Assembly: GCA_011523055.1 (NCBI GenBank)
Contig: WTHQ01000020.1
Location: 80,114 to 144,113, forward strand
DNA from: Methanobacteriota archaeon
GTDB lineage: Archaea; Thermoplasmatota; Poseidoniia; Poseidoniales; Thalassarchaeaceae
Direction of reading: 5' to 3'
DNA: 64,000 bases
Both the position numbers and the translations under genes were made by a program. Every line of letters starts with the position of its first letter. Positions within the stretch are counted from its first letter, which is position 1. Under the pieces are notes generated by a model. It did not search any database. It saw only the letters and a program-made list of their open reading frames with translations, and was not told the DNA's origin. Of this stretch, positions 176-56,146 are shown piece by piece.

Positions 176-577
176 ATGGAGAGTATCTCATTCAGGAATG
201 ATGCTTCCTCAGCATCGGTCCCAAGGAGGATTGCAGCCTCATTCTTCTACCTCTCCCACATTTTCGTCACTATGCTCGTTGGATTAGGTTGGCTCGCTCC
301 GTGGGACATAGTTCTCTGGTCAGTGGTTGTAGTTTACTGTGCGACTGAGATACTCTGGCTCACCCGAGATGGCTATTGCATTCTAACCGATATTGAACGG
401 TGGCTTTTGGGTATCGAGAAACCGAAAAGCGCTCTCCAACAAAATTTCATCCAAAGACTGTTATTGTCATGGACGGGTAAATCTTTCACCCCGCAGAACT
501 CAAGGAATTTGACTGTCATCTGGGGTAGGTTGAGCCTCTCCATATGCATCGTCAGACTCTATTCCCCCTGGTTTTGA
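176..577 (+). CDS. Small hypothetical membrane protein (two predicted TM helices)
   Basis: ATG-initiated 133-aa ORF packed between trxB and the MoeZ-like gene, with a hydrophobic core FFYLSHIFVTMLVGLGWLAPWDIVLWSVVVVYCATEILWL. No recognisable family. Confidence 0.35.
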   Translation: MESISFRNDASSASVPRRIAASFFYLSHIFVTMLVGLGWLAPWDIVLWSVVVVYCATEILWLTRDGYCILTDIERWLLGIEKPKSALQQNFIQRLLLSWTGKSFTPQNSRNLTVIWGRLSLSICIVRLYSPWF

Positions 578-582
578 TAGAA

Positions 583-1665
583 ATGGATGAGAGGAGATTG
601 AATCGATTCGATAGGCATATTGTACTTGATCAAATTGGCTTGTCTGGCCAGATTAAGTTCTCAAAGTCGATCGTGACAGTAATCGGAGCGGGCGGCCTTG
701 GAAGTCCCGCTCTTTTGTACTTGGCAGCTGCTGGAATAGGTGAGATCAGGATTATTGATGATGATGTCGTCGACGTCTCCAACTTACAGAGGCAGGTTCT
801 ACACTCGGAAAGAACAATCGGGTTGAAAAAAGTGACATCAGCGACGGACAGGCTGAAGGAAATTGATTCAAATCTCATGATTAGATTTTTCGAATCCAGA
901 CTGACTCCAGAGAACGCAATTGATTTGATCACAGGATCTGATGTAGTCATAGATGGAACAGATAATTTCCAAGCAAGATACGCAATAAATGACGCCTGTG
1001 AGGAGCTAGGCGTTCCCTGGGTGTTTGCCAGTGTGCTGAGATTTGAGGGTCAAGTCTCAGTCTTCAATTATCAGGGCGGGCCGAATTATCGCGATTTATT
1101 CCCCAGTATACCCCCCCGTGAACTGGCCCCGAATTGTTCTGAGGCAGGAATATTGGGGTCAGTGACCGGAATTATCGGATCCATACAAGCCACTGAGGCA
1201 TTGAAAGTCTTACTGGAAAAGAAGGATGTCCTATCCGGAAGACTATTAATTTTTGATGCCCTCAAAATGGAATCTCGGATTCTGAGGTTCGGTGGGGAAC
1301 AAAGGGGCCCTCCCAGGATCGTTGCAAGTCCGATAATGAACAAGAAAATTACTCCAAAGGAGCTTGAAAGAATGATGCGAGAGGGGGAAGATTTGTTTTT
1401 ATTGGACGTCAGGAGAGAATTCGAGGAGTCAATAGCAAGTATTGAAGGAACATCGATTAGGATCGAGCACCTACAAATCCCCGCAAGAATAGATGAACTA
1501 CCGCGAAATTTACCGATAATAGTGTATTGCCATTCTGGAGTTAGATCTGCTGCGGTGGTCGAATATCTTTCAAAACTTGATGATTTTAGTGGAAGCGTAT
1601 CAAACCTGGAGGGCGGGATCGATAGATGGTCTATCGAAATAGATTCGAATATTCCAAGATATTGA
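583..1665 (+). CDS. ThiF/MoeB-family E1-like adenylyltransferase with C-terminal rhodanese domain (MoeZ/MoeB-like; sulfur-carrier or SAMP activation, molybdopterin/thiolation)
   Basis: Nucleotide-binding motif VIGAGGLGSPALLYLAAAGIGEIRIIDDDVVDVSNLQRQ. C-terminal rhodanese active-site loop YCHSGVRS. Start placed at the internal ATG (MDERRLNRFDRHIVLDQ) matching the usual MoeB N-terminus. Confidence 0.8.
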   Translation: MDERRLNRFDRHIVLDQIGLSGQIKFSKSIVTVIGAGGLGSPALLYLAAAGIGEIRIIDDDVVDVSNLQRQVLHSERTIGLKKVTSATDRLKEIDSNLMIRFFESRLTPENAIDLITGSDVVIDGTDNFQARYAINDACEELGVPWVFASVLRFEGQVSVFNYQGGPNYRDLFPSIPPRELAPNCSEAGILGSVTGIIGSIQATEALKVLLEKKDVLSGRLLIFDALKMESRILRFGGEQRGPPRIVASPIMNKKITPKELERMMREGEDLFLLDVRREFEESIASIEGTSIRIEHLQIPARIDELPRNLPIIVYCHSGVRSAAVVEYLSKLDDFSGSVSNLEGGIDRWSIEIDSNIPRY

Positions 1666-1846
1666 AAAATTATCTATTTATGTAAATAATTTTAATTTAA
1701 TTTTCATTTATTATGTAAAATAAATTTTTTTTTTTTCTTAAAATTATGTAAAATACATTTCAGTACAACATTTTATTAATGTATAAAATTTGTTTTAAAA
1801 TTTTTAATATAAGGTAAATAGAATTAATTTCATCAGAATAATTTAT
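1666..1846 (+). promoter_or_regulatory. Extremely AT-rich (about 85-90% AT) intergenic island with phased TTATGTAAA(A/T) repeats and a T13 tract. Likely terminator of the upstream gene plus promoter/operator array for the downstream fused E1 gene.
   Basis: Core ATGTAAA copies begin at about 1680, 1713 and 1747 (33-34 bp spacing, same helical face). Degenerate copies near 1789 (ATGTATAAAA) and 1845 (ATGTGC). Poly-T at about 1724-1737. Confidence 0.4.
1724..1737 (+). terminator. Oligo-T tract (13 T), candidate archaeal intrinsic terminator about 60 bp downstream of the MoeZ-like gene stop
   Basis: Uninterrupted T run. Archaeal RNAP terminates at oligo-T tracts. Confidence 0.3.
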
Positions 1847-1870
1847 GTGCTTTCTATCTATGCAGAGTTC

Positions 1871-4678
1871 ATGTCCTATGAAATATCAGGCATATGGAGA
1901 TGTCCCAATTGCAATCATCACCAACCTTGGAAATCTAGCAAAAGGGAGCTTAAGGCCTTGGATAGAAAATGCACAAAGTGTTCAGAAAGGACTAGGATAA
2001 TGATTCACAGGTCACCAACTGGCCAAGGCCGCACGTCCCATGCAAAAGTATGGATTAGGGAAAAACATAGTGACTCAGACCTTGAGAGTGAGGCGAGAAG
2101 CAGGAACAATCCATTGCATGAGGGACCCGATGAGTACAGCGGTGATCAATCTGACTTGCCAAAGATTTGGGGTCGAGGGTGGAAGCCCACGGAACATTTG
2201 ACCTTTGATAAGGCGATTAAACCGGATTACGTCATCAATGAAGTTCTGAGGTTCACAGCCGAAAGGTGGGATGGTTACCTGGAATTAATCAGAGATGCTC
2301 TCAAAGAATGCGTCGGTACAAAGTCAATGAACGGTGAGGAATTTCATGAGTGGTCAGAGCTGTTTTGCGATCACGTGCATGAATCATTCGATGACAGGCT
2401 TCATACACCAAAAATCAACAGTATCTTGCTGACTGAAATTATCCCGAAGAGGGATGGTAGACTCTATCTGTCAAGAAGAAGGGATAGGTTGCTGTTAGAC
2501 TTGCGCCTTCTTCTCAGAAGGCTTGCGCACTTGGCTTCAATCACCAAAGAAGAGCGTCTTCATTGGCATAGACTGATGTTGAGGACCAGAGTTTTGGACG
2601 GACATCTAAAGGAGCTTTTCGTTGAGGGAGTCGAAACTCCTGACGGGGGCAATTTTGGAGGGAAGGGTTTCAGATCGACCTGGCAAGAGCCTATCGCTGC
2701 ATGTGGCACAGCACTGCAACTGGGGAATGACGTGGCTGCTCCGATGATCAGGGATCTTGGGCTCGCACTCTCAATGGGGCAGACGCCACTATCAATCATG
2801 TCTGCACAGATGGGTAAGTCTGGATCGCAGATGAATGGCGGCCACCCTAACTTCGGGGGCAGAGACCTACATATCGGAGATTGGAATTATGGCATTCTTC
2901 CACCCACTGCCCCGTTACCCATTGCAAGTGCGACTGCTACGGGAATCGCTCTTGCATCATCAAGAAACGGGAACGGAGTGTTCACACTTGCTCCCGTTGG
3001 GGAGGGTTGCAGTAGCAGCGGGGAGTTTTGGGAAGCGATAAACTTCGCAGGCGCTAGGGGGCTCCCAATATGTTACATCATCCAAAACAATCAGATTGCA
3101 CTTGACACATTCTCAAACAAACAATCAGGGGCAGAGACATTCGGGGATAAGGGAGCTTCGGTTGGGCTTCCGGCTTGGAGCATAGATGGGTCTGACCCAG
3201 CGATCTACTATGCTTCGGTTGCAGTGGCCCGAGAGCTTTCTGTTTCTGGATTTGGGGGCTGCATCATACATGTCGAAACCATGAGGGGTTGTGGCCATGC
3301 GCATCATCACGATGACCTCTATCTTGGTGCAGAAAGTGGCAATCCACCAGGCTACGTCGGACAGGACTTAATCCAGTATTGGTCCAAAAAGGAACCAATC
3401 GAAAATCATGAACGGCTGCTGATAGGAATGGGTGTCAGTGCCAAATTACTGAAGTCAATTGTTGACGAAGAAGTCGCTCTTTGCGGGGAGGCGCGATTGG
3501 CCGTGGAGTCCATGGCTTGGCCCGAGCCGGAGACCGTGGCTGTCGGAACGACAAAGCTGACAGATGCAAGAACGCACGAGCAACAGATCAAGGATCTTGA
3601 GGGCGTCCAAAAACTGGTCGGCCATTCGGACCTGGGGCCAATGGAATTCGATGATGCGGTTAACTCGTGGAGTTTCAGTAGAGCAATTCAGAACGCAATG
3701 GTCAATATCGCGGATAATGATGGGGAAAACGTACTATTCATGGGCGAGGACATGGAAATTGCCGGGGCCTTCGGATTGAATCTCGCCCTCAAGGCCAAAG
3801 GGCACGGTGGGAAACTTCTCGACATGCCATTGTCTGAATCTATCATCATAAACGGAGCAACGGGAGCTGCCTTGGCCGGTCTTCGCCCGATCGCGGAGAT
3901 ACAATTCGGAGGGTTCGCCGCTCTGGCAATGAACGCTTTGGTGAACAATGCCGCTCAACTGAGATGGAGATGGGGGGCCAATGTCCCCCTCACAGTGAGA
4001 ATTCCGTTGGGCGGGAAAACGAGAAGTGGGCCGTATCATGCCAATGTGATAGAATCTTGGTTTCTGAATGACCCAGGGCTTTTGATTGGGTTCCCGTCAA
4101 ATCCCCAAGATGCCTATGATCTACTCATTGAGGGGCATTCGTTGGATGACCCTTTCGTACTCTTGGAACACATTGGATTGTACGGATTGCGTGGGGGCCT
4201 GACTGGTTGGGGAGATCGAATAAGCCAGCGCGTCGACACCGAATCGGTGAGGGAGAGACTGCGACAAGGCATGCACACCATTGGAAAAGCGAGAGTAGTG
4301 AAACGAGGTGGGGATGTCTCAGTGATAACTTGGGGTGCAATGGTTCACGTTGCCATGAATGCCGCCAGAGTGCTTTCCAAGGAGGGGATCGATGTAGAGG
4401 TAATTGACCTCAGGACCCTGAATCCACTGGATAGGGGCACATGCGTACAATCTGTCAAAAAGACCGGTCGCATGATCGTTCTACAAGAATCGCAATGGAC
4501 TGGCGGCTTCGGGCACACGATATCATCTGCAGTGCTCGAAGGGTCGTTTTGGTCACTAGAGGCCCCGCCGATTGTAATCGGGGCCCTCGACGTGCCGGTT
4601 CCTTTCTCCCCTCCTCTGGAGGACCACACCATACCTGATGTGGATCTCCTTTCCCAGCATGTCAGGAGATTGGTGTGA
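1871..4678 (+). CDS. Fused E1 alpha-beta component of a TPP-dependent 2-oxoacid (pyruvate/branched-chain/acetoin-type) dehydrogenase, with an approx. 230-aa N-terminal extension carrying a C4 zinc ribbon
   Basis: E1-alpha TPP motif GEGCSSSGEFWEAINFAGARGLPICYIIQNNQ (GDG-x-NN type). E1-beta transketolase-like region MEIAGAFGLNLALKAKG...AEIQFGGFAALAMNALVNNAAQLRWRWG. N-terminus MSYEISGIWRCPNCNHHQPWKSSKRELKALDRKCTKCSE. Open reading frame continuous from GTG 1847; first ATG at 1871. Confidence 0.75.
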   Translation: MSYEISGIWRCPNCNHHQPWKSSKRELKALDRKCTKCSERTRIMIHRSPTGQGRTSHAKVWIREKHSDSDLESEARSRNNPLHEGPDEYSGDQSDLPKIWGRGWKPTEHLTFDKAIKPDYVINEVLRFTAERWDGYLELIRDALKECVGTKSMNGEEFHEWSELFCDHVHESFDDRLHTPKINSILLTEIIPKRDGRLYLSRRRDRLLLDLRLLLRRLAHLASITKEERLHWHRLMLRTRVLDGHLKELFVEGVETPDGGNFGGKGFRSTWQEPIAACGTALQLGNDVAAPMIRDLGLALSMGQTPLSIMSAQMGKSGSQMNGGHPNFGGRDLHIGDWNYGILPPTAPLPIASATATGIALASSRNGNGVFTLAPVGEGCSSSGEFWEAINFAGARGLPICYIIQNNQIALDTFSNKQSGAETFGDKGASVGLPAWSIDGSDPAIYYASVAVARELSVSGFGGCIIHVETMRGCGHAHHHDDLYLGAESGNPPGYVGQDLIQYWSKKEPIENHERLLIGMGVSAKLLKSIVDEEVALCGEARLAVESMAWPEPETVAVGTTKLTDARTHEQQIKDLEGVQKLVGHSDLGPMEFDDAVNSWSFSRAIQNAMVNIADNDGENVLFMGEDMEIAGAFGLNLALKAKGHGGKLLDMPLSESIIINGATGAALAGLRPIAEIQFGGFAALAMNALVNNAAQLRWRWGANVPLTVRIPLGGKTRSGPYHANVIESWFLNDPGLLIGFPSNPQDAYDLLIEGHSLDDPFVLLEHIGLYGLRGGLTGWGDRISQRVDTESVRERLRQGMHTIGKARVVKRGGDVSVITWGAMVHVAMNAARVLSKEGIDVEVIDLRTLNPLDRGTCVQSVKKTGRMIVLQESQWTGGFGHTISSAVLEGSFWSLEAPPIVIGALDVPVPFSPPLEDHTIPDVDLLSQHVRRLV

Positions 4679-5694: not shown

Positions 5695-6291
5695 ATGATC
5701 GACGAGGGCGTCCCAGACTGTCTGATACTTGCATCAGGCCTCAGCAGAAGACTAGGCTACGACAAAGCAACTATCCAATTGGGTGAAACGACACTCTTGT
5801 CAGCCATGATTGAAACCATGAAGGATCATGGAATGAAGACTTGCGTCGTGATTGGTCCGACTTCAGACGAAGCGGGGAGCAGTGACTCTGTGATTTTCGT
5901 CAGAAACGAGAATCCGGATCATGGGAGGACTGGGTCAATACAGGTTGGGTTAGAGGCTCTCGGTTGGCCCGAGAGGGTGATTGTGGCCCCGGTTGACAGA
6001 CCAGGATTTAGCTCAAGGACGCTAAAGAGGCTTTTTTCTGCCGATTCGAGTGCCAGCCCAGAGAAACAGGGCCGAGGGGGCCATCCGGTTTTTTTGGACG
6101 ATGAGGGAGTCATGGCCGTCAGGGATGCTCATCCAGACTCACCGTTGAATTCTCTCATTGACTTTTCCCGCTTCGAGGTCGATGATCCATATTTACACCT
6201 GAATGTGGACACCTCAGAGGACGTCATGTCCTTGAAGATGGCATGGGACGAAATATCAGACTCATGGAAAGTCAACCCCAACCCAGAGTAA
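5695..6291 (+). CDS. MobA/MocA-like molybdenum-cofactor nucleotidyltransferase (likely molybdopterin cytidylyltransferase for an MCD cofactor)
   Basis: N-terminal LILASGLSRRLGYDKA NTP-transferase motif, about 190 aa, sits next to XdhC and an XDH-family enzyme. Confidence 0.6.
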   Translation: MIDEGVPDCLILASGLSRRLGYDKATIQLGETTLLSAMIETMKDHGMKTCVVIGPTSDEAGSSDSVIFVRNENPDHGRTGSIQVGLEALGWPERVIVAPVDRPGFSSRTLKRLFSADSSASPEKQGRGGHPVFLDDEGVMAVRDAHPDSPLNSLIDFSRFEVDDPYLHLNVDTSEDVMSLKMAWDEISDSWKVNPNPE

Positions 6292-7467
6292 TAATAGCCC
6301 ACAAATAAGTCCGGGCAACAGGGTGTGAACAGTGGCCCATAGTGAGGCGGTGCGATGACGTACCAAAAGTGGGAACAGGGCATCTCCGTCCTGAGAGATG
6401 GCATTCGCAACCAATGCCGGGAAGGAAAGAATTCCTTCAACGTAGGCAGTTATTGCAATGATTTGGGGCCCACACCCTGGAATTAGGCCGATGGTTGCAG
6501 CTACTGCTATTGCCCCAGGCCCGTCTCCATTGGTGGCTAGGTCGGATTCAGTCGCCCCAGTTGAAAGCAATAATCCCTCAAAGACCAGGTAGGCTGCTAG
6601 GACCCACGTCGTGACAAAGGCCGTCTCCGATGCGGCGTGGGTCAGCGTTTCATCAAACGAGTGAAGCTTGTCCCCAATAGTTGCCTCAGTGTCATCTGCG
6701 ATGAAGCTCTTCCCTGCGATGTACAATACCAAAGACAGTATCGTGCCAGCCACCCCCACAACAGTGAGAATTCCATCTCTTGTGGACAAATCCCATGACA
6801 GCTCAGGATTGTAACTAGGTTCCCTGGCCAACCAAAATATGAGTAGTACCCCAAGGATGAAGCCGACCATAGTGACTAGCCACCATAACTTGTACCCACT
6901 ATGGACTATCTTGTAGGACAGAGTGCCTGGTTCCTCCCTCGGTAAATTGGAGATGATGTCAGTCATCTCCTTTTTCTCACTCCGGTCCTCTAATGTTTGA
7001 ATCGCCAGATTTCGTTGTGTAATTTTGGGCTTCATTCCGAAGGGGCTTTCAGGTGTGATCATCAACAAATCAGCCCCATAGCCCCAGATCACCCCAGCTA
7101 GGAATGAAATTAGGTGAACGAGGATCACTGGGGCGAGGAATTGATTGTCTTGAATCGCTGCCCCGAACAAAACAAAGGCAGAATCCCCCAGGGTGGCAAT
7201 CAGGGTCGCCAATACAGTCCCGTAGGTGACATAGCCCTTCGCGAACATCGGCATCATGATGATTGCTCCACCGCAACCGGGAATCACGCCCATTAGTGCT
7301 CCGATGAGTGGTTGCCATCTCTTACTCGACCTGATCCAATCAACGAACTTTCCAGCGGTAAGGTACTGTAGCCAGCTGAAGAGGAGGACCATGACGGCGA
7401 CGAACACCGTGACGGCAAGAAACGCATCACGCATTGCAACCAGAATCGTCTCCAGCAGTGGGTTCAC
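6262..7467 (-). CDS. Polytopic membrane protein with two internal repeats, each carrying a conserved IPGCG motif. Permease/transporter of unknown substrate.
   Basis: 401-aa ORF, about 10 TM helices. Motifs GVIPGCGGAIIMMPMF and GLIPGCGPQIIAITAYVEG sit in the N- and C-terminal halves. Located inside the Mo-cofactor/XDH locus. Confidence 0.55.
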   Translation of the reverse strand: MNPLLETILVAMRDAFLAVTVFVAVMVLLFSWLQYLTAGKFVDWIRSSKRWQPLIGALMGVIPGCGGAIIMMPMFAKGYVTYGTVLATLIATLGDSAFVLFGAAIQDNQFLAPVILVHLISFLAGVIWGYGADLLMITPESPFGMKPKITQRNLAIQTLEDRSEKKEMTDIISNLPREEPGTLSYKIVHSGYKLWWLVTMVGFILGVLLIFWLAREPSYNPELSWDLSTRDGILTVVGVAGTILSLVLYIAGKSFIADDTEATIGDKLHSFDETLTHAASETAFVTTWVLAAYLVFEGLLLSTGATESDLATNGDGPGAIAVAATIGLIPGCGPQIIAITAYVEGILSFPALVANAISQDGDALFPLLVRHRTASLWATVHTLLPGLICGLLLLWVGVDFP

Positions 7468-7493
7468 GGTTGTTACAAAAGGCTGGAAGACTT

Positions 7494-8360
7494 ATGACTT
7501 CCCAATGGCTGCAGGAGAAAAAGTGCAAGAGCACCGACGCGGAGATGTTTTTTTTGGGATCAATGACTCTGAGGTGGGCGTTGCACCAATTGGATTTATG
7601 CAATACCGTAGCCATGGCCTCAATAATTGACTCGGATGGTAGCGTCCCTGCCAAAGTGGGGGCGAAATTGGCATTTTCCACCTCTGGAGACAGACATGGC
7701 ACAGTCGGAGGAGCCGGTCTGGAACTCAAAATCGAACACAGACTGAGATCGATACTCAATGGTTCCGAGGGGGGAATTGAGACCTTCGTCCTCTCCAAGT
7801 CATCTAGTGATCCTTCCACCACCAACCTAAACAGCCTCTGTGGTGGCCGGGTGACTGTGGCATTCGAGAGGTTGGATCCAAGCCCCCATATTCTACTGAT
7901 GGGTGGCGGCCACGTTGCAAAAGCCATCAGCGAGGCATGTGAACTCTTGGGATGGCGACATAGCGTCTTTGATGAACGTGGGGAATACGCGTCCTCAGAG
8001 TCATTCCCCGCCTCAGTAGAAAGAATCCATGCCAGCGCAGATGAGTTCCTTGAAATTGAGACTGCCACGTCACTCTCACGGTTTTCCGATATTCTCCTGC
8101 TCGGCCATGACTGGGCGATAGATCAGAAGCTGTTGATTGGGCTGCTGTCATATTCCGAGGATATTCCATGTAGGATAGGGTGCATAGGATCAAAGACCAA
8201 GTGGAGAGAATTCACAAAGTCAGCGAAAGGAGAGGGAGTTTCAGACGATCGTTTGGGTTTGGTCAGATGCCCAATCGGCGCCCCGATAGGAGCTGTGACC
8301 GTGGAGGAGATAGCATTCGCTGTCTGTGGCGAGATCATCTCGCTCATCAGGACCTCGTGA
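7494..8360 (+). CDS. XdhC/CoxI-family accessory protein (Mo-cofactor insertion/maturation for XDH-family enzymes)
   Basis: N-terminal XdhC_CoxI-like segment VAMASIIDSDGSVPAKVGAKLAFSTSGDRHGTVGGAGLE. Rossmann-like XdhC_C LLMGGGHVAKAISEACELLGWRHSVFDER. First ATG at 7494; the listed ORF start 7434 is TTG. Confidence 0.7.
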   Translation: MTSQWLQEKKCKSTDAEMFFLGSMTLRWALHQLDLCNTVAMASIIDSDGSVPAKVGAKLAFSTSGDRHGTVGGAGLELKIEHRLRSILNGSEGGIETFVLSKSSSDPSTTNLNSLCGGRVTVAFERLDPSPHILLMGGGHVAKAISEACELLGWRHSVFDERGEYASSESFPASVERIHASADEFLEIETATSLSRFSDILLLGHDWAIDQKLLIGLLSYSEDIPCRIGCIGSKTKWREFTKSAKGEGVSDDRLGLVRCPIGAPIGAVTVEEIAFAVCGEIISLIRTS

Positions 8361-8398
8361 CTAATCCGCTTCAAGCGCCACCTTCAATTTCATAACCA

Positions 8399-9067
8399 AT
8401 GGCAATGCAACAAACACTCGTGCGTAGGGTTAGGCTTAGGTGGAGTCGCTCAGACTTAGAAGGGGTAGCAGAGTTCAAACAGTTGATGGATGCTGTAAGA
8501 AAATACGAGGTGCTTGCCCACATGAAGCTGGGTGAAGAGGGTATCGAGCATCTCGCTGAGATAATCCCTGTGAAAGGTGAGTTGAGCGCAATGGATGACA
8601 TTCCAACTTTCGATGTGCTGGAAGTCCATGAGAAGGATGATGACTCTGGCTCATACCTAGTCTCTGTGAATCTTACACATTCCCTCCCGATGATGATGTT
8701 AGACCTGGAAAAAATACACTTACATCCGCCATATGGTTTAGACGAAGATGGACTCGAATTGAATTTTACTGGCCGATCAGACTCAATGAAGCGTCTCATT
8801 GAATTGCTGAGGATGATGATGCCCTGGGATTCGATCAGCATACAATCCGTCAGGAGCAATGTAGGCGACATGTGGCGAGGGATATTGACCGACCGACAAA
8901 TAGAAGTTCTTCGCCAGGCTGTAAATCTAGGGTACTACTCAGACGAGAGAGGGATCAAGATAAAAGATCTCGCAGAAAGTATGGGGATGGCAAGGTCCAC
9001 GATGGGGGGGCATCTCAAACTGATAGAACAATCTGTGATGTCAAAGGTGGTTGACGACTTAGGCTGA
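8399..9067 (+). CDS. Archaeal transcription regulator with C-terminal bat-type HTH_10 domain
   Basis: C-terminal LTDRQIEVLRQAVNLGYYSDERGIKIKDLAESMGMARSTMGGHLKLIEQ matches the bacterio-opsin activator HTH_10 pattern. Immediately upstream of the CoxSLM-like genes. Confidence 0.7.
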   Translation: MAMQQTLVRRVRLRWSRSDLEGVAEFKQLMDAVRKYEVLAHMKLGEEGIEHLAEIIPVKGELSAMDDIPTFDVLEVHEKDDDSGSYLVSVNLTHSLPMMMLDLEKIHLHPPYGLDEDGLELNFTGRSDSMKRLIELLRMMMPWDSISIQSVRSNVGDMWRGILTDRQIEVLRQAVNLGYYSDERGIKIKDLAESMGMARSTMGGHLKLIEQSVMSKVVDDLG

Positions 9068-9108
9068 CTAGCCCTAAGTCTCTTACACCTAGCAACAAGT
9101 CGAGGAAC

Positions 9109-9675
9109 ATGGCCCCGCAACCTCTGCCTTTGGCGGACGACGCCCCAGTGGCTGTTTGGAGTGCGGTAGTGAACGGTAATCCTGTCCGTGCGATCATAAA
9201 GAGTCATGATGTTCTGCTCGATGTAATCAGAGACGGAATCGGGTCACTAGGGACCAAGAGAGGGTGCGACATGGGAACCTGTGGCTGCTGCACTGTTATG
9301 ATTGATGGCAAACCAAGACTATCTTGTCTGACTCTTGCGATGGAGGCAAAAAACCACCAAATCACCACGGTGGAGGGTCTCTCCGACGGACATTATCTAC
9401 ATCCAATCCAAGATATGTTTGCCGAATGTGGTGGAAGTCAATGTGGATTTTGTACTCCGGGGTTTCTCGTTGCCAGTGCAGCGTTGTTGGATGGAAACCC
9501 AACACCAACAAGAGAGGAGGCCATGCAAGCCATAGAGGGTAACCTATGCAGATGCACGGGATACCAGCAAATTATCGATTCAATAATGAGCGCATCCAAG
9601 ATACTTTCTGAGGGGTCGCAGATTCAGGCCACCACCGAGCCAGCTAGCGATCCCCACCCGAATTCCAGGGGCTGA
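9109..9675 (+). CDS. [2Fe-2S] small subunit of xanthine dehydrogenase/aldehyde oxidase/CoxS family
   Basis: Plant-type ferredoxin motif CDMGTCGCCTV and second cluster motif CGFCTPGF...NLCRCTGYQQI. Confidence 0.85.
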   Translation: MAPQPLPLADDAPVAVWSAVVNGNPVRAIIKSHDVLLDVIRDGIGSLGTKRGCDMGTCGCCTVMIDGKPRLSCLTLAMEAKNHQITTVEGLSDGHYLHPIQDMFAECGGSQCGFCTPGFLVASAALLDGNPTPTREEAMQAIEGNLCRCTGYQQIIDSIMSASKILSEGSQIQATTEPASDPHPNSRG

Positions 9676-9679
9676 GCTA

Positions 9680-12454
9680 ATGTCGAAGGACAAGGAGATA
9701 GTCGGATATCGCCAACAGCCAGGCAAACTTGACTTTACTAGGCCAGGATCGGGTGGTTCCTCCCCCCTCTCAGAGGACAGGGACCCGGAAATGATTCCTG
9801 CGAGCCAAGGGGGGGAATTAGAGCAACCATGGGGCGCCCATCGTCATGACAACCTGGTCACAGGCAGGGTTATTGGGAAGAGGACGCCCTTGATTGACGG
9901 CAAGTGGAAGGTGACGGGGCAGGCCATTTACGGTGACGATGTCAGATTGCCGGGCGAGATAATCGGCCGCTTGGTGAGGACTGATCGCCATTACGCAAAA
10001 GTTCTCTCGATTGATATGACTGAGGCCGAGTCCATTCCGGGCGTTATCGCAACGGCGACGGGGGTAGACGCCCCATCCGCCTTTGGAGTCTTACCTGTTA
10101 CTAAGGACGAGCATGCAATGGCACTGGAGAAAGTGAGGCATATTGGAGACATTGTTGCATGCGTGGCTGCAGTTGACGAAGAGACCGCCAGGCTAGCGGC
10201 CAGCAAGGTCCAAGTGGAATACGAAGGGCTTGAACCGATTTTCGACATGAGGGACGGGTTGAAGAATTCGACAGACCCGATCCACGATAGAGGAAAATAC
10301 CACATTGGGGAGTCCAATGTTCAGAAAAGAGTGTTCCAGAGGTTCGGAAGAATATCCGACTTGGAGAAATCAATGGCCTCGTATGATGATGATTGGACAT
10401 TTAAGGGCGTGAATCATGGGTTTACAGAGCCACATGCGGTGGTGGCCCACTGGGATCCTAGGGGCCGTCTCACCCTCTACACCCCTCAGCAAGTTCCACA
10501 TTACGTTCATAGGGCTCTAGCAGATGTTTTGGAAATTCCAATGCACCAGATAAACGTCCACAGGACCTATGTGGGAGGTGGCTTCGGAGGGAAGTCCGAC
10601 CCATTCCCTCACGAGATGTGCGCAGCTATACTAGCGAGGAAGAGCGGTAGACCCGTTAGAATCACGTTTGATAGGGAAGAGGTTTTCTGGACAAACAGAG
10701 GACGTCACCCTTCCAGGATTTCAATGTCGATCCATGCTGATGATAAAGGGAGATTAAGCGGGATAGAAACTGACGCGTTGATCGATGGAGGCGGTTTCGC
10801 CTCGTTCGGTCATGTGACCACTTACTACAACGGGGTTCTCCATACCGCACCCTACGAGATAGGGGCATTCCATTACACTGGAGCAAGGGTCTGGACAAAC
10901 AAACCCGCCAGCGGGGCCATGAGAGGGCATGGGGCAGTAAACTCAAGGTGTGCAGTGGAAGTTGGGATTGACCACATCTCCGAAGAGATGGACGTGGACC
11001 CAATTGATCTCAGGCTCGCAAACCTCCTTCCGCCCAATTCAGCAACGATAACCGGTTTCAGGATAACTTCAATCGGAATGAGAGAGTGTCTTGAGAAGGT
11101 TCGCAGACAATCTGGATGGGACGAAAAGTTCAGGAAAATGCCTCTAGGCAAGGGAATTGGGGTAGGCTGTGGCTTCTTTATTTCTGGTAGTGGCCTACCG
11201 ATACACTGGGATCCCAACAAGTTTCCTCATGCCACCGTCCATCTGAAGATTGACATGGATGGGGGGGTTACAGTTCATACCGGTGCGGCTGACATTGGGC
11301 AGGGCTCCGACACTGTTGTTGGACAAGCGGTGGCCGAGGTCCTTGGCCTTCCTATGGACATGATAAGGATCAGGTCGAAAGAGTCAGACACATCTCCGGT
11401 CGATCTTGGTTCTTACTCCAGCAGAGTCACCTTCATGAACGCAAATGCAGCTGTCTCCGCTGCCATGGAAATAAGGTCCAACCTTATCGATGCTGCGTCC
11501 GAACTGACAGGCGTGGAGAGGGCTGACCTGGTTCTCGGAGATAGGCGAATATTCAACAAGAAGGATCCGGGCGTGGGAGTTTCCTACCTCGAAGCATTGC
11601 ACAAGGCACAGGAAGACAAAGGTGCTCTGATAGCCTCTGGGTCTTACAGAACGCCGCCCATGGGGAAAATGCACAAGGGCGCTGCTGCCGGATTGGCTCC
11701 TGCCTACTCCTTCTCTGCTTATGTCGCAGAGGTGGATGTCGATGTCGAGACAGGGAAAATCAAGGTAGAAAAAGTATGGGCAGCACATGATTGCGGAAAG
11801 GCTCTGAACCCACTCTCAGTTGAAGGGCAGATTATCGGATCATGCCACATGGGGCTGGGACAAGTCATATCCGAGGAGATGAAATACGGAAGAACTGGGA
11901 ACCTTCTGAACCCAGACCTCCTCGGCTACAAGATCCCGACGGTCCATGAAATGCCGGAGGTCGTCCCTATAATCGTAGAGTCAAATGATCCAGAAGGGCC
12001 ATTTGGAGCCAAGGAGGCGGGCGAAGGGCCCCTGTTGCCAATCCTCCCCGCGGTTTGCAATGCTGTCTACGACGCCATTGGAGTGAGGGTAAATGAGTTG
12101 CCACTCACCCCTGACAGATTGCACAGGGCAATAGAAAGGACCTGTAAGCATAAGGGGGTCAAAGATCCACGAGATCTCCCCAATCCATCTCTTCAGAAGG
12201 GGGCTTTGTCCGATGTGCTGATTGCACGGGCCGAGGTTCACTCAGAGAGAGACAAACAGAGAAGATTGAATCCAAATCCAGAGGCATACTTCAACGGGCA
12301 ACTATTCAACCATCTTACTACAGGGCCCCCGGAAGAGCATGATCCTGAATGGACTATTCAGGTTCTGCCAGACGAGGAGTATCTGAACAACCCGAAACTG
12401 GCTGGCAGCGCTTGGCTTCACAAGGAAAGAAGGCACATGGAGGAGTCTGGATGA
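9680..12454 (+). CDS. Molybdopterin-binding large subunit of an XDH/CoxL-family hydroxylase (substrate unknown; not a canonical CO dehydrogenase), with N- and C-terminal extensions
   Basis: YVGGGFGGK Mo-binding signature. Active-site loop reads TNKPASGAMRGHGAVNSRC, which is A-x-R-G-x-G type and lacks the AYRCSFR Cys motif of form-I CODH. 924 aa versus about 780-800 typical; approx. 150-aa unique C-terminal tail. Confidence 0.85.
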   Translation: MSKDKEIVGYRQQPGKLDFTRPGSGGSSPLSEDRDPEMIPASQGGELEQPWGAHRHDNLVTGRVIGKRTPLIDGKWKVTGQAIYGDDVRLPGEIIGRLVRTDRHYAKVLSIDMTEAESIPGVIATATGVDAPSAFGVLPVTKDEHAMALEKVRHIGDIVACVAAVDEETARLAASKVQVEYEGLEPIFDMRDGLKNSTDPIHDRGKYHIGESNVQKRVFQRFGRISDLEKSMASYDDDWTFKGVNHGFTEPHAVVAHWDPRGRLTLYTPQQVPHYVHRALADVLEIPMHQINVHRTYVGGGFGGKSDPFPHEMCAAILARKSGRPVRITFDREEVFWTNRGRHPSRISMSIHADDKGRLSGIETDALIDGGGFASFGHVTTYYNGVLHTAPYEIGAFHYTGARVWTNKPASGAMRGHGAVNSRCAVEVGIDHISEEMDVDPIDLRLANLLPPNSATITGFRITSIGMRECLEKVRRQSGWDEKFRKMPLGKGIGVGCGFFISGSGLPIHWDPNKFPHATVHLKIDMDGGVTVHTGAADIGQGSDTVVGQAVAEVLGLPMDMIRIRSKESDTSPVDLGSYSSRVTFMNANAAVSAAMEIRSNLIDAASELTGVERADLVLGDRRIFNKKDPGVGVSYLEALHKAQEDKGALIASGSYRTPPMGKMHKGAAAGLAPAYSFSAYVAEVDVDVETGKIKVEKVWAAHDCGKALNPLSVEGQIIGSCHMGLGQVISEEMKYGRTGNLLNPDLLGYKIPTVHEMPEVVPIIVESNDPEGPFGAKEAGEGPLLPILPAVCNAVYDAIGVRVNELPLTPDRLHRAIERTCKHKGVKDPRDLPNPSLQKGALSDVLIARAEVHSERDKQRRLNPNPEAYFNGQLFNHLTTGPPEEHDPEWTIQVLPDEEYLNNPKLAGSAWLHKERRHMEESG

Positions 12455-13455
12455 AGACCCCGGCATTTGAACTCCACATACCCACCACTTTGAAGGAGGC
12501 CCTGGGCATAGCCAGAGAATTGCATGAAAGGGGGCATGACTTTGACTGGATATCCGGGGGGACTGACCTAATTCCAAATTACAAGTGGGGAATCAACCCT
12601 CGACCTCATGTCATATCAATTTCAGGAGTTGATGAACTCAAGGGAATCTCCCCCACCAGGATTGGGGCGATGGCGAGATTGCAGGATATCGTGGAATCAC
12701 CGGTTGCGCACCCACTGATTGTTGAGGCGGCTGGGACGATTGCGAGTATAATGATCCGCAGGTCAGGGACACTTGGAGGGAACCTTTGCCTAGATACTAG
12801 GTGCTTCTGGCTCAACCAATCAGAGACATGGAGGAAGTCGATAGATTACTGTCACAAATGCGATGCGGGGACGGGTGCGGATTGCAGAGTGATCCCAAAC
12901 CAGAATGAGCTCTGTGTTGCGACCTACCAGGGAGATCTAGCACCTGCACTGATGTGCCTGGACGCAAGTGTTCACCTAGCCTCCCATAGGGGTACTCGGA
13001 GCATGCCGCTTGAGGACTTCTTCCAAGAAGACGGCATCACAAGAAACGTACTACAACAGGGAGAGATAGTCACACACGTCGAGATTCCAAAGGGTTCTAC
13101 GAGCGTAGTCGGGTCCTACCAGAAACTTCGTCATCGAGAGGCGTGGGATTTCCCAGAGGGGGGTGTCGCCTTCTCGGTATCACTCTCTGATGACGGCACC
13201 CCTGTTTCATTCAACATGGCTAGCACAGGGTTTGAGAGCATTCCTCGCAAGCATCACGATTTGGTTGAAACTATCTCAAAGGGTCCTGATTGGGCCGTGG
13301 AAGCAGAACGACTTGGGGTAGAACTCAAGAGAGCGGTCCGGCCCGTGCTAAACACGTGGTTCCCCCCAGCATATCGAAAGAAAATGGCCTCAGTGTTGGC
13401 CAGAAGAGCCATGGAAGAAGCCTCAAAAAGACTTACTTCGGCTTGGCAGTCATAG
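12451..13455 (+). CDS. FAD-binding medium subunit (CoxM/XdhB-like) of the XDH-family enzyme
   Basis: MKTPAFELHIPTTLKEALGIARELHERGHDFDWISGGTDLIPNYKW is a FAD-binding molybdopterin-dehydrogenase signature. Its ATG overlaps the CoxL stop in an ATGA arrangement (12451-12454). Confidence 0.8.
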   Translation: MKTPAFELHIPTTLKEALGIARELHERGHDFDWISGGTDLIPNYKWGINPRPHVISISGVDELKGISPTRIGAMARLQDIVESPVAHPLIVEAAGTIASIMIRRSGTLGGNLCLDTRCFWLNQSETWRKSIDYCHKCDAGTGADCRVIPNQNELCVATYQGDLAPALMCLDASVHLASHRGTRSMPLEDFFQEDGITRNVLQQGEIVTHVEIPKGSTSVVGSYQKLRHREAWDFPEGGVAFSVSLSDDGTPVSFNMASTGFESIPRKHHDLVETISKGPDWAVEAERLGVELKRAVRPVLNTWFPPAYRKKMASVLARRAMEEASKRLTSAWQS

Positions 13456-14351
13456 GCTTCCACCTATTATTGAGCATGGGTATCGCCACTGGACAAGATG
13501 GCCCAGGGGGATGGTCGGTGTCCATTTCAGATGAAAACGGGGAGTCCCAGAAAATTACACTTTCACAAGGTGGTGGCTCCTCTATACCGATACTAGTCGA
13601 AAATAACGAAATATTCGGTACCATAACAGTCTCCCTGGACTGCACTGCCCCATTTGAGGCACAGGTATCCTGTCCAGCTGATGTGACGGTGACCTCAGGA
13701 GAGAACACCACAGTATACGGAGTGGTGAGCGATGTCGATGTTCAGAGTATCCCAGCTGGTACGAATGAGTTGTTCGAGGTAACTGGCACAGTCGTAGCCA
13801 GGAATGGAGTTCCGATCGTACTCCCCGGGGACACGGATTCTGACGACGTTCCAGTTGAAATCCCAGAGATTTACAACCTGGAAGTGACCATCGACGATCC
13901 AGTAGGCCCGATAAACGCTGGAGCCGATACAATCCTGAAGGTCTTCGTCAAAAACATGGGCAACATTGCGGATAGAGTCTCCGAAACTGATGTCTCAGTG
14001 GATTGTACGCTCATAACGGTAGGAGGGCAGACTTCTGAGATAACAAATACCGAAATTGCGATCGGTGCCTCAATTTCAACAAACCTCGTATTTGAGGCTG
14101 CACTTAGCCACCCATCTAGATCGTGCGACGTGGAAATCCAGATTATATCCCAGGGTTCTGGCGGTAGCCAAACATCAACCGACTCTACAAGAATTGAAGT
14201 GCAAGCCGCAACAGATGATAATGAAGAGAAGAAGCCGACTGAAGATGACACAGGGACTGTCGAGGTAGTTACCACTGGACTTCCCTCAATAGGAATTCTT
14301 GGATCTACAGCATCATTGTTGATCGCGGCCTTTTTGCGAAGGAAGTCCTGA
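13443..14351 (+). CDS. Secreted, C-terminally membrane-anchored surface protein with CARDB/Ig-like fold region
   Basis: Signal-like N-terminus (KKTYFGLAVIGFHLLLSMGIATG). Body VTIDDPVGPINAGADTILKVFVKNMGNIADRVSETDVSVDC. C-terminal TM plus basic tail LPSIGILGSTASLLIAAFLRRKS. No in-frame ATG before the signal; TTG 13443 is proposed and the start is uncertain (the listed ORF TTG 13290 overlaps coxM). Confidence 0.5.
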   Translation: MAVIGFHLLLSMGIATGQDGPGGWSVSISDENGESQKITLSQGGGSSIPILVENNEIFGTITVSLDCTAPFEAQVSCPADVTVTSGENTTVYGVVSDVDVQSIPAGTNELFEVTGTVVARNGVPIVLPGDTDSDDVPVEIPEIYNLEVTIDDPVGPINAGADTILKVFVKNMGNIADRVSETDVSVDCTLITVGGQTSEITNTEIAIGASISTNLVFEAALSHPSRSCDVEIQIISQGSGGSQTSTDSTRIEVQAATDDNEEKKPTEDDTGTVEVVTTGLPSIGILGSTASLLIAAFLRRKS

Positions 14352-23995: not shown

Positions 23996-26443
23996 TCATT
24001 GAGTTAGGTTCTTCACTTTATCAACCAGATCCATCCGACGTAAGCGCCAGATCCCGATCGGAGTCATGCCAATAGCAATCACCACTACACCGGCCATAAG
24101 CTGGTAGGCAACGCTAGGCACGATTAGGATAGTCACGTAGAACTGCCATGAGGAGAATGACGCTGCCAGGCCCACTGCGCCACCGTAGGCAAATGCCACT
24201 CCTACTATTCCGCCGACGAAGCCGATTAGCAGGCTTTCGAACAGAAGCATGATACCGAGGCTTGCTGTTGATCCTCCGAGCACTCTCAGGGTAGCGAGTT
24301 CGAAATCTCGCTCTGCGACATTCATGATCATCGTGTTGAACATAACGGCTATGGTGAAAATTAGTCCCAAATACATCATGGCAGTAAAAATCTGAGTCTG
24401 TTGGTCAATGAGGCTGTTCATACCGTCAATGAGGGTCTTTCGCTCGACCACCCCAATTGAAATCTCCGCTAAGGTCGGGTCTACCTCGATTCCATCAGGA
24501 AGTTGGAGGTAGACAGAGGTAGCATTGATCCCCATCACACCAGCCAAATCCGCCCTCATGAAGTACATCGTTCGAGCTAATTCCCCCCTTGTCACACCTA
24601 CGATGACAACCTCTTGTTCAGCACCGTTCAACATGATTGAATGGCTTTCCCCTAGGCTCCATCCCAAAAGGGCCATCGAACCCTCATCCAGCATCACTTC
24701 TAATGTGCCGTCGCTTAAATCTGGCCTATCACCCTGGACAATGTTCACTCCTCGTAGTCCGCCATCGTAGCTCTCCAAGCCAACCACGGTGAATACACGT
24801 TCAATTCCCTCGTGGTCTTCCACACTCCCCAGAGGCAATTCGATGAGCTGTTCGTAAGGTGCGCCACGTTCTTCGGCCCATGCAATGACTTTGGCCTCTC
24901 CATCTTTGCCGATGTAGACTTGAGCATCCCATGATTGCCGCTCTTCAATCCCACCCACGATTGTGTTCTCCAGGCCAGCCGACATCATCTGTACTGACCC
25001 GAAAAGCATCAGGGAAATGCCAACTGCAAGAAATGTCATCATCAAACGAACTGGCTTGCGAACGCTTGAACGGATGGATAGGCCGAGTGTCGTTGGCATC
25101 CAAGAGGTAAGGCGACGAAGGGTGTTGGATCCAACTCGAATTTGGTTTTGGCCGCCGAGCACGCTGAGGGGGTCCAAACGGCTAGCCTTCCAAGCCGGGA
25201 AGGTTCCCGATAGGAACACCACAATCATGGTTGGAATAATTATTCTCGCGATCAGTGAGAAGGGGATCTCACGCTCGATGATCGGAAGGCCGACAATACC
25301 CTCGTAGAAGTCCAACATGCCATTTACACCCCATGGTCCAATAATGGCCCCTAGTCCACAGCCGACCGTACCAATGGCCAAGGGAGCGATTAGGTACCCA
25401 GTCATCAACGACCTCCTGCTTACCCCAAGGGTCCTCAGGGCGGCTATCTCTTTCTCTTGACTCTGTACCAACCGCTGAAGACTGAGCACAATGGTGATTG
25501 AGGCTATGGCAGCAATCATCAATGCAAATGGTATGCTCGTTCGCTTGGCGCCCTCAAGATCTTGTCGCATTATTTCGACGGGCTCGTTCTGACCCCTATC
25601 TCTTACCCGCCCCTCTAATTCAGTTGACTCAAGGGCGGATGAAACAAGATCCTTGACAACATCAATTTCACCGCCCTCGTATATCTTAGTGTCAGGGAAA
25701 TCGAATGATGGTGTGCCAGTTACGTCCAATAGTATCGTGTTACCTGAGCCCAAAGAGGTATTTGTCAGACGGGCCATCCCGGAGTCAGAAAGGTACCCCA
25801 CTACGTACTGTCCTGGCTCTGGTGGGAAGAGTGAGCCCTCGGGCGCCATGAAGACATGAAGGGGATGGTATCCTATGCCCACTACCTCAAACTCCGCGGA
25901 GTCGCTGCCAGCACCGATTTCTACTATATCGCCAAGTGAGATGTTTAGCGCCTCGACAACATGTGCGTCGATTACGATTTCATCGTCTCCTGAGGCTACC
26001 CTCCCTTCACTGTGCCCCTTGGGCATCCATATCCTGTCAGCATTGGCATCATCAGGTATTCCATGCCACAAGGAATTGATTATCCGTGTACGTCCCCCCT
26101 CATGATGGAACATTGTTCCCTGCATGATTTTTCGTCCCTCGCAGGAGTCTATTCCTGGCAAATCTACGGGCCATGATGATTCCAGATTATCGCAGAAGTT
26201 GTTAATTTCGTCTTGAGTCCATGAATTACTACGGTTGTCTATCCAAAGGTCAGCTAAGTTTGATCCTTCATCATCGTCTGCTTGTAGCGCCTCGTACATG
26301 CCGTCTAAATTGTGAGAATAACCACTGAATGTGATTCCTGCGAATATGCCAACTGAGACCATCATCACTACTGCCAACAATCGAAGCTTCGTTCGCCACA
26401 GGCTGCGAGCCAAACGCTTGTTCAGGAGAATTGACATCATCAC
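23996..26443 (-). CDS. ABC transporter permease with duplicated FtsX domains and large extracytoplasmic loops (MacB/YbbP-like)
   Basis: 815 aa. Two FtsX-type 4-TM bundles (LRTLGVSRRSLMTGYLIAPLAIG.. and LRVLGGSTASLGIMLLFESLLIG..). Adjacent to the cognate ATPase. Confidence 0.75.
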   Translation of the reverse strand: MMMSILLNKRLARSLWRTKLRLLAVVMMVSVGIFAGITFSGYSHNLDGMYEALQADDDEGSNLADLWIDNRSNSWTQDEINNFCDNLESSWPVDLPGIDSCEGRKIMQGTMFHHEGGRTRIINSLWHGIPDDANADRIWMPKGHSEGRVASGDDEIVIDAHVVEALNISLGDIVEIGAGSDSAEFEVVGIGYHPLHVFMAPEGSLFPPEPGQYVVGYLSDSGMARLTNTSLGSGNTILLDVTGTPSFDFPDTKIYEGGEIDVVKDLVSSALESTELEGRVRDRGQNEPVEIMRQDLEGAKRTSIPFALMIAAIASITIVLSLQRLVQSQEKEIAALRTLGVSRRSLMTGYLIAPLAIGTVGCGLGAIIGPWGVNGMLDFYEGIVGLPIIEREIPFSLIARIIIPTMIVVFLSGTFPAWKASRLDPLSVLGGQNQIRVGSNTLRRLTSWMPTTLGLSIRSSVRKPVRLMMTFLAVGISLMLFGSVQMMSAGLENTIVGGIEERQSWDAQVYIGKDGEAKVIAWAEERGAPYEQLIELPLGSVEDHEGIERVFTVVGLESYDGGLRGVNIVQGDRPDLSDGTLEVMLDEGSMALLGWSLGESHSIMLNGAEQEVVIVGVTRGELARTMYFMRADLAGVMGINATSVYLQLPDGIEVDPTLAEISIGVVERKTLIDGMNSLIDQQTQIFTAMMYLGLIFTIAVMFNTMIMNVAERDFELATLRVLGGSTASLGIMLLFESLLIGFVGGIVGVAFAYGGAVGLAASFSSWQFYVTILIVPSVAYQLMAGVVVIAIGMTPIGIWRLRRMDLVDKVKNLTQ

Positions 26444-42683: not shown

Positions 42684-42784
42684 ATCTCTATTTCTCCTAG
42701 CCTGGGCTGCGCTGCGCATGGCTTGGGGGAGTAGCAATGGTCTCTTATTATTTGCCGCCGGATGGACGTTGAAACGGCCTGACG

Positions 42785-47255: not shown

Positions 47256-47323
47256 GTCCCTTGCACATCACCGCGGCTCGCTCGTGCTGCACGTGTGCGC
47301 TTGCAAGGATGTGTATTCCCGAA

Positions 47324-56079: not shown

Positions 56080-56146
56080 AACCCCCCTTCATCGAAGCAT
56101 CCAGAAGTTGAGATTATACGGTGGCTGCTTCGAAGATCACACAGGC

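Follow-up and report, generated by a model that had tools for sequence, protein, structure and literature searches.

A 33-bp-phased repeat array, putatively an operator, is anchored to the start codon of the 2-oxoacid dehydrogenase E1 fusion gene in Poseidoniales

In a 64,000-nucleotide stretch of a genome of the archaeal order Poseidoniales (Thalassarchaeaceae; contig WTHQ01000020.1, positions 80,114 to 144,113; hereafter the window), the gene for a fused E1 alpha/E1 beta subunit of a thiamine pyrophosphate (TPP)-dependent 2-oxoacid dehydrogenase is preceded by an AT-rich island. This island carries six same-strand copies of the core T-N-A-T-G-T in exact 33-bp steps, at positions 1678, 1711, 1744, 1777, 1810, and 1843. 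The array is restricted to this one spacer, keeps its distance from the E1 start codon, and recurs upstream of the same gene across the order. We put the probability at roughly 55% that the island is a dedicated phased operator array that controls the promoter of the E1 fusion, probably through an oligomerizing DNA-binding protein. That a protein binds, of what kind it is, in which direction it regulates, and where transcription starts are what we infer from these features.

All array coordinates are positions in the 64-kb window, and negative offsets are counted from the ATG at 1871 of the E1 gene. The intergenic island (1666-1870, + strand) fills the spacer between the thiF-rhodanese and E1 genes and is 205 bp long, not ~180 bp as estimated in an earlier sequence-only reading of this stretch. 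Its GC content is 14%, against a window mean of 51.5%, and the lowest 100-bp window across the 64 kb (8% GC) is found at 1660-1759. In a crude gene map of the window, all 19 other intergenic gaps of at least 40 bp have GC contents of 44 to 64%; hence, the E1 spacer is the sole AT-rich spacer in 64 kb. The sequence-only reading had rightly described a nearly pure A/T spacer upstream of E1, had set the GC content of coding regions too high (~55%; it is ~51-52%), and had considered that the motif might occur in all AT-rich spacers, of which the window contains no other.

The sequence TTATGTAAAW is found with 0 mismatches only at 1678, 1711, and 1744 in the 64 kb, with a spacing of 33.0 bp. When the sequence is printed in 33-bp lines, the same register extends to 1777 (TAATGTATAA), 1810 (TAAGGTAAAT), and 1843 (TTATGTGCTT), such that the array spans the island from end to end. 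Of 2,000 composition-matched simulations of the island (first-order Markov), one produced an exact 9-mer three times at equal spacing. Numbered from the start codon and all on the + strand, the units are repeat 6, the most distal (1678-1687, TTATGTAAAT, -193); repeat 5 (1711-1720, TTATGTAAAA, -160); repeat 4 (1744-1753, TTATGTAAAA, -127); repeat 3 (1777-1786, -94); the degenerate repeat 2 (1810-1819, -61), which carries a GGTA core typical of other clades; and the proximal repeat 1 (1843-1850, TTATGTGC, -28). A secondary element, TCAGTACA, lies between repeats 4 and 3 (1760-1767, + strand; family consensus TTCAGTRTA / yAGTATA). Thus, the phasing of the three 33- to 34-bp repeats originally noticed is confirmed and is exactly 33.0 bp, while their number rises to six. 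The two degenerate copies also reported are present and in register, with ATGTATAAAA located at 1779 rather than 1789, and a T run read as T13 at 1724-1737 is a T12 run at 1725-1736 (+ strand). The cores were further held to lie on one DNA face; at 10.5 bp per turn, 33 bp corresponds to 3.14 turns, a drift of ~51 degrees per step, so this is no more than approximately true.

Only the cores are alike from one unit to the next. The units do not match over their whole length, as those of a minisatellite-type tandem repeat would, and this is why Tandem Repeats Finder (TRF) reported no 33-bp array (only 6- and 11-bp AT microrepeats at 1687-1710) and a repeat finder no direct families. The island contains no open reading frame (ORF) of at least 20 amino acids. 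An Rfam search of the island gave no family match (best E value above 4, far below gathering scores), and its predicted RNA fold was not more stable than shuffled sequences (minimum free energy z-score, +0.21). AA/TT dinucleotides in the island show no 10- to 11-bp periodicity, and the signals of G at 16.5, 11, and 5.5 bp are harmonics of the 33-bp comb. A bacterial sigma-70 promoter scan of the island is not meaningful, the host being archaeal. In agreement with the sequence-only reading, no transposase domain was detected in Pfam scans of the window's 44 ORFs.

The last repeat overlaps a promoter-like box. A proximal block at 1834-1848 (+ strand) consists of CAGAATA (1834-1840, -37 to -31), which resembles the transcription factor B recognition element (BRE), and the TATA-like ATTTATGT (1841-1848, -30 to -23), and repeat 1 overlaps the 3' half of the latter. 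The claim that the array is not an ordinary BRE/TATA element is not right, since this box is conserved and the sixth unit overlaps it. In archaeal core promoters, a purine-rich BRE precedes an A/T-rich 8-mer whose center lies ~26 to 27 bp ahead of the transcription start, and a BRE/TATA block at -37 to -23 has canonical geometry if the mRNA is leaderless. The placement of the block would fit a transcription start at or near the ATG.

Upstream of the island, the gene at 544-1665 (+ strand; stop codon TGA at 1663-1665) encodes a ThiF-family adenylyltransferase with a C-terminal rhodanese domain (Pfam ThiF, 2.7e-75; Rhodanese, 1.7e-12), and the same gene lies upstream of E1 in all relatives. The E1 gene (1871-4678, + strand; Pfam E1_dh, Transket_pyr, and Transketolase_C) encodes an E1 alpha/E1 beta fusion with a Zn-ribbon and helical N-terminal extension; the assignment as a TPP-dependent 2-oxoacid dehydrogenase E1 is by Pfam. 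Public records list its homologs under Poseidoniales, Euryarchaeota, or Thermoplasmatota archaeon, which assigns the window to a Marine Group II archaeon. Gene callers differ over the start codon, placing it at GTG 1847 (inside the last repeat), at ATG 1871, or at the internal Met-44. The N terminus M-x5-GIWRCPxC is common to the homologs, and ATG 1871 is therefore likely the true start.

To follow the array among relatives, look-ups and a metagenome scan yielded a window clade of eight lineages (the window, L002, L003, L075 to L078, and L081) with E1 N termini 60 to 76% identical to that of the window. In all eight, the spacer is ~205 bp (kept within 1 bp) with 13 to 16% GC, and the cores lie at -193, -160, -127, -94, -61, and -28 from the ATG, within 1 bp; the dominant distances among motif matches are 33, 66, 99, and 132 bp. 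At the 40 distal sites, the G is present in 40 of 40, the following T is invariant, and the preceding T is kept in 39 of 40, in spacer DNA where G makes up ~7% of bases and the surroundings are nearly pure A/T. The flanks of the distal sites are T rich upstream and A rich downstream. In a nearly gap-free alignment of the eight lineages, the invariant columns comprise the cores and the proximal block GAATA..T.ATGT.C; no variation is seen at 23 of the 30 columns in the cores, compared with 16 of the 141 in the spacers. The secondary element is kept in most of the lineages (the window, L075, L076, L077, and L078), and relatives again have T runs immediately ahead of repeats, those before repeat 3 being conserved. 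At the shortest range, two strains whose called E1 protein is identical to that of the window differ from it at seven island positions, none of them in a TGT/GGTA core, while the flanking coding DNA shown is identical; repeat 2 reads TACGGTAAAT in strains with an exactly matching E1 protein. The sequence-only reading had allowed for a lack of conservation between close relatives, and the array proved to be kept. Since the cores and their spacing are kept while the spacers drift within A/T, we conclude that cores and spacing are under purifying selection. Three further metagenome contigs of the window clade, L001 (1-43), L079, and L080 (both ~1-105), end inside the island, as if short-read assembly tended to fail at a spacer of 14% GC.

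The same architecture, with a different motif, was found in other Poseidoniales clades, represented by 58 further distinct E1 upstream regions. In these regions, the gene order of thiF-rhodanese followed by E1 is unchanged, and spacers have 21 to 41% GC, against a mean of ~50% in the E1 coding sequence. The motif is TGTGGTA(A/T), in direct orientation and in 33-bp pairs. Pairs were counted at -28/-61 in 47 regions, at -121/-154 in 49, and at -203/-236 in 25, using ranges that also admit a few shifted registers. The commonest motif distance is 33 bp (104 counts versus 57 for the next). The distance from the array to the E1 ATG is kept even where the third pair extends the array upstream, and some clades carry one extra, inverted copy (ATACCACAT). 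The upstream modules gave the logo AATATTAA-TGTGGTA-N10-yAGTATA-N6-TTTTAw-TGTGGTAA, so the secondary element yAGTATA is also found inside these 33-bp modules; the proximal module gave TGTGGT-N12-CAG-N5-CGAAnATT-TGTTGTA-yTA.

The promoter-proximal block of these clades, CGAAnATTTGTTGTAyTA, lies at the same distance from the ATG as the box of the window, -37 to -23, with CGAAnA-TTTGTTGTA in its place; in L005, for example, CGAACA occupies -37 to -32 and TTTGTTGTA occupies -31 to -23. The proximal copy in the TGTGGTA clades is thus again at the TATA position. The distal motif and the proximal box switch together by clade, from TTATGTA with ..ATGTGC to TGTGGTA with TGTTGTA, which suggests that one ligand reads both. 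In both groups the site is asymmetric. A logo of 124 TGTGGTA sites has information only in the asymmetric TTTaAtTGTGGTAa, and the position weight matrix scores 4.6 against its own reverse complement, versus 17.4 against itself; the window-clade core T.ATGT is likewise asymmetric.

The motif is concentrated at this one locus. Across 371 kb of Poseidoniales loci, TGTGGTA occurs on the + strand 142 times in the 320 bp upstream of E1 (~22 kb in total) versus 25 times in ~350 kb of flanks. The 25 flank copies equal the background expectation, and the enrichment upstream of E1 is ~100-fold; no phased TGTGGTA pairs were found outside the E1 upstream regions in the 371 kb. A scan of prokaryotic genomes, one species-representative genome per species, for the strict pattern of three TTATGTA copies at 33 bp returned 69 loci: 68 in unrelated bacteria and one archaeal, L061, which is the same spacer as that of L003, so that no second array was seen with this triple pattern. 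The enrichment and these single-spacer results indicate that the motif is neither a general promoter element nor a dispersed repeat. Literature searches for TGTGGTA returned primer sequences only, and searches on 2-oxoacid dehydrogenase in Poseidoniales and on origins in Marine Group II turned up nothing on the E1 locus.

Several matches outside the E1 spacer were inspected. Apart from the array, the window has a single T.ATGTW pair at 33 bp, 24345/24378 (24345-24384, minus strand); it lies inside the coding sequence of an FtsX-like permease of normal GC content and was judged a chance occurrence rather than a second array. The bacterial matches inspected, L045 (1210-1335) and L014 (7140-7265), are 11-bp microsatellites, (CTTATGTACGR)n, in which 33 is 3 × 11. 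These microsatellites belong to Bacteroidota, recur at several loci in the metagenome-assembled genomes Chitinophagales La1_metabat2.097 and Prevotella RUG176, and are unrelated to the archaeal array. A scan of viral contigs for TGTGGTA-N26-TGTGGTA gave chance matches among those listed and is uninformative, as only 14 bases are specified.

How might such an array work? An invariant G and its adjoining Ts in a sea of A/T, swapped by clade for another G-containing core, point to base-specific readout by a protein and not to composition. In the reading that we favor, a sequence-specific DNA-binding protein would read the G-containing core in the major groove and would bind cooperatively, as an oligomer or filament. 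Because the sites are asymmetric and all face the same direction, the ligand is not expected to be a simple dyad-symmetric dimer on each site; an oligomer of translational or ring symmetry would fit, as would monomers on a scaffold. The step is strictly 33 bp in preference to 31 to 32 bp, which gives an apparent 11.0 bp per turn and suggests that the DNA does not run straight but is wrapped or writhed around the protein. Since the 3' half of the TATA-like box is shared with the proximal site, occupancy of this site should decide or stabilize access of TATA-binding protein (TBP), TFB, and RNA polymerase. A protein at this site might thus control their recruitment, either by occlusion (repression) or by activation from the upstream sites. 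The E1 promoter is probably leaderless. Archaeal transcription terminates at oligo-T runs, and the T runs of the spacer, such as the T12 run, probably also terminate the upstream thiF operon. The proposal that the region is an iterated operator, a multi-TATA promoter array, or another protein-binding scaffold thus fits the comparative evidence of conserved cores and spacing and order-wide recurrence, with binding itself still putative.

Several observations weigh against a dedicated operator array. No binding protein was found, and no Lrp/AsnC or other regulator gene adjoins the array. The sole transcription-factor-like gene in the 64 kb, HTH_10, is 6.5 kb away, and the array can do without it. 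Given short sites in an A/T context that resembles TATA boxes, the ligands could be basal factors rather than a dedicated regulator. Shine-Dalgarno-like GAGG near -9 in some relatives would argue against a strictly leaderless mRNA. Finally, the lack of further arrays rests on a strict triple pattern and one genome per species.

If basal factors were the ligands, the island would be a tandem promoter, an explanation that we regard as unlikely though deserving of serious attention. Each unit, a T-rich run, TGT core, and A-rich run, would be TATA-like, and the upstream modules would be duplicates of the core promoter; TBP/TFB, possibly a specialized paralog, would bind the units and produce nested transcripts, or the units would form a reservoir that feeds the proximal promoter. 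The upstream modules, ..c.TTTwwTGTGGTA, do resemble the proximal CGAAnATTTGTTGTA, the proximal copy is exactly at the TATA position (-30 to -23), the flanks have the T-rich and A-rich polarity that such units would show, and the 33-bp step is near the archaeal BRE-to-start distance. However, an invariant G in a sea of A/T is unlike the minor-groove selection of TATA sequences by TBP, and the conserved BRE-like CGAA/AGAA is confined to the proximal module. The upstream regions of neighboring genes lack the motif in the 371 kb of Poseidoniales DNA, and the TATA-like boxes at other promoters of the window are ordinary A/T sequences. The invariant G also bears on an architectural or chromatin element, in which a nucleoid protein (archaeal histone, Alba-like, or other) would be nucleated or positioned at the island, or the island would bend intrinsically or melt easily and so hold the promoter open, with the motif setting the register. 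This we hold to be improbable. An AT content that is extreme and unique within 64 kb, the ~200 bp covered, and a step of ~30 bp reminiscent of the ~30 bp per archaeal histone dimer speak for it. On the other side are the G in 40 of 40 sites and the clade-specific swap to TGTGGTA, which point to sequence-specific recognition; the absence of 10- to 11-bp AA/TT periodicity beyond the harmonics of the G comb; and the retention of the pairs in other clades in spacers of 21 to 41% GC, which are not extreme.

A ligand might also be sought in the E1 protein itself. Residues 1 to 280 (window positions 1871-2710) precede the E1_dh domain and have no Pfam, PDB sequence, or fold match; no DNA-binding fold was detected in this extension, for which an AlphaFold2 model (predicted local distance difference test score, 81) predicts a four-Cys beta-ribbon, a linker, and a helical bundle. 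If the basic N-terminal Zn ribbon bound the repeats, E1 would be a trigger enzyme comparable to PutA, which acts on the put control region. We find such autoregulation slightly less credible again than an architectural element. In its favor, the array is found only before the E1 gene with no regulator gene adjoining; the first 66 residues have an isoelectric point of 10.2 in an otherwise acidic protein; and the extension is restricted to its own family (65 representatives, mostly fragments, among 1.8 billion proteins) and kept in all array-bearing homologs. These features are compatible with self-regulation and do not amount to support for it. Zn ribbons often contact proteins rather than DNA, and E1 enzymes are C2-symmetric dimers, which would favor inverted over direct repeats. 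More broadly, it is doubtful, if a shade less so than either of the two preceding ideas, that the ligand represents an activity of no described family, whether this same Zn-ribbon N terminus or a Poseidoniales-specific polymerizing protein wrapping ~200 bp; the latter candidate would polymerize with screw or ring symmetry along asymmetric direct repeats at a 33-bp step. Very AT-rich intergenic DNA with regularly spaced direct repeats, and the one inverted copy in some clades, are also what a replication origin might present, with the repeats serving as initiator sites (iterons) beside an AT-rich unwinding element. We consider this very improbable: the origin recognition box (ORB) consensus TTCCASTGGAAAY (PMC4153887), allowing at most 3 mismatches, gave 66 matches versus 61 expected by chance, none in the island; no Orc1/Cdc6 or Rep gene was found among the window's 44 ORFs or within 10 kb on either side in L155 and L156; and the array keeps a fixed place relative to the E1 start codon and has a BRE/TATA-like box. 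Equally hard to credit is the trivial explanation of no function, that is, a decaying tandem duplication or a compositionally drifting spacer. Such decay would account for a shared core that is short and for the failure of TRF and the repeat finder to see the array, yet positions and cores are held while spacers are randomized within A/T across lineages, and the same architecture is found order-wide with a different motif.

Other features of the window were recorded as well. A conserved cluster at 5695-12454 encodes a MobA-like NTP transferase, an ArsP_2 permease, XdhC, HTH_10, a 2Fe-2S subunit, and a large Mo-hydroxylase subunit. Suggested by the sequence-only reading as a candidate regulator, the HTH_10 protein (8399-9067) was rejected as one linked to the array: its gene accompanies the CoxS/L-type Mo-hydroxylase genes, in L155 as well, but does not follow the E1 array, since L156 has the array and no HTH_10 within 10 kb. 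Downstream of the CoxL-like Mo-hydroxylase gene, ~1 kb (12455-13475, GC 0.52) has no ATG-started ORF of at least 90 amino acids in a crude map and may hold a gene with an alternative start or a pseudogene. A two-gene 2-oxoacid:ferredoxin oxidoreductase (47309-50142; POR/POR_N, then TPP_enzyme_C) has neither an AT island nor an array upstream. Two large proteins are encoded at 36264-42719 (minus strand; 2,151 amino acids with FG-GAP repeats) and at 56063-60763 (+ strand; 1,566 amino acids with subtilase S8, CARDB, and a C-terminal Zn ribbon).

The uncultured Poseidoniales (Marine Group II) belong to the archaea that are most abundant in the surface ocean. We know of no work on gene regulation in this order, and targeted literature searches likewise found none. 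The E1 cis-element is order-wide, strict in its 33-bp geometry, anchored to the start codon, and evolves with its promoter, and it is therefore usable as bait for a first Poseidoniales regulator; it would also lend itself to the study of how cooperative binding at an archaeal TATA box depends on spacing. In practice, the spacer seems to interrupt the assembly of metagenomes, and it leads gene callers astray on the E1 start.

Comparison with known systems places the array beside several and within none of them. Plasmid and phage iterons share with it same-strand repeats at a fixed step beside very AT-rich DNA. However, iterons are 17 to 22 bp, close-set, and beside a rep gene, whereas the core here is 6 to 9 bp, with no rep gene in the window, and the array is chromosomal and syntenic across the order, with its last repeat in a putative promoter. 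Archaeal oriC regions, too, are AT-rich intergenic DNA with repeats; the 8% GC stretch at 1660-1759 is as AT rich as a duplex-unwinding element would be, a feature that is not specific alone, and TGTGGTA shares GTGG.A with the ORB core CAGTGGAAA. The window-clade motif lacks GTGG, though, and unlike oriC regions the array has no ORB/mini-ORB consensus (CTTCCAGTGGAAACGAAAGGGGT), no G-string, and no orc1/cdc6 neighbor, and it has direct repeats where theirs flank an unwinding element in inverted orientation.

Among regulatory systems, PutA-type trigger enzymes have a fused DNA-binding domain and several operators in their own control region. E1 resembles them as a metabolic enzyme with an extra N-terminal domain and a multisite control region private to its own gene; in contrast to PutA, no DNA-binding fold is detected in its extension, and the parallel is purely hypothetical. 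Archaeal activator sites include those of Ptr2 upstream of fdxA/rb2 and the GvpE-responsive direct repeats beside the BRE in Halobacterium. As in the array, these are short, promoter-specific repeats just upstream of the BRE/TATA and in register with it; they differ in comprising two sites within ~20 to 40 bp, against two to six at 33-bp steps over 60 to 200 bp here, and in having unrelated motifs. RbkR, considered because riboflavin genes lie upstream, recognizes in Thermoplasmata the palindrome TTAC-N10-GTAA (PMC5397151), and it was set aside, as the sites have no TTAC 10 nucleotides upstream of GTAA.

Multisite control by Lrp-type proteins is known from E. coli Lrp at ilvIH and pap and from Pseudomonas putida BkdR at the bkd operon. 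Control regions of the Lrp/AsnC family, with archaeal multisite examples in Ss-LrpB, FL11, LrpA, and Ptr2, contain clustered, degenerate, AT-rich sites at two- or three-helical-turn spacing that are wrapped cooperatively next to the TATA box, and family targets include amino acid and 2-oxoacid metabolism, with Ss-LrpB controlling the pyruvate:ferredoxin oxidoreductase operon (PMC2995911). The array is similar in having several degenerate AT-rich sites over at least 100 bp, a spacing of the three-turn class, and TATA overlap, with six sites in the window and 33-bp pairs in the 58 regions. Lrp/AsnC sites are nevertheless 13- to 17-bp imperfect inverted repeats with an AT-rich center (PMC2995911), whereas the information in the array lies in an asymmetric core of ~7 to 12 bp in direct orientation. 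No Lrp/AsnC gene (AsnC-type HTH or RAM domain) was found in the window's 44 ORFs or within 10 kb on either side in L155 and L156; such a gene may lie elsewhere in the genome. As the palindrome definition fails and no Lrp gene is nearby, we do not file the array as a member of this family. By analogy, a multisite Lrp/AsnC control region is the closest functional counterpart of the array, which may work like one. Most likely, the E1 array is an undescribed case of a known kind of element, the phased promoter operator array, and its unusual features are asymmetric direct repeats and a strict 33-bp step.

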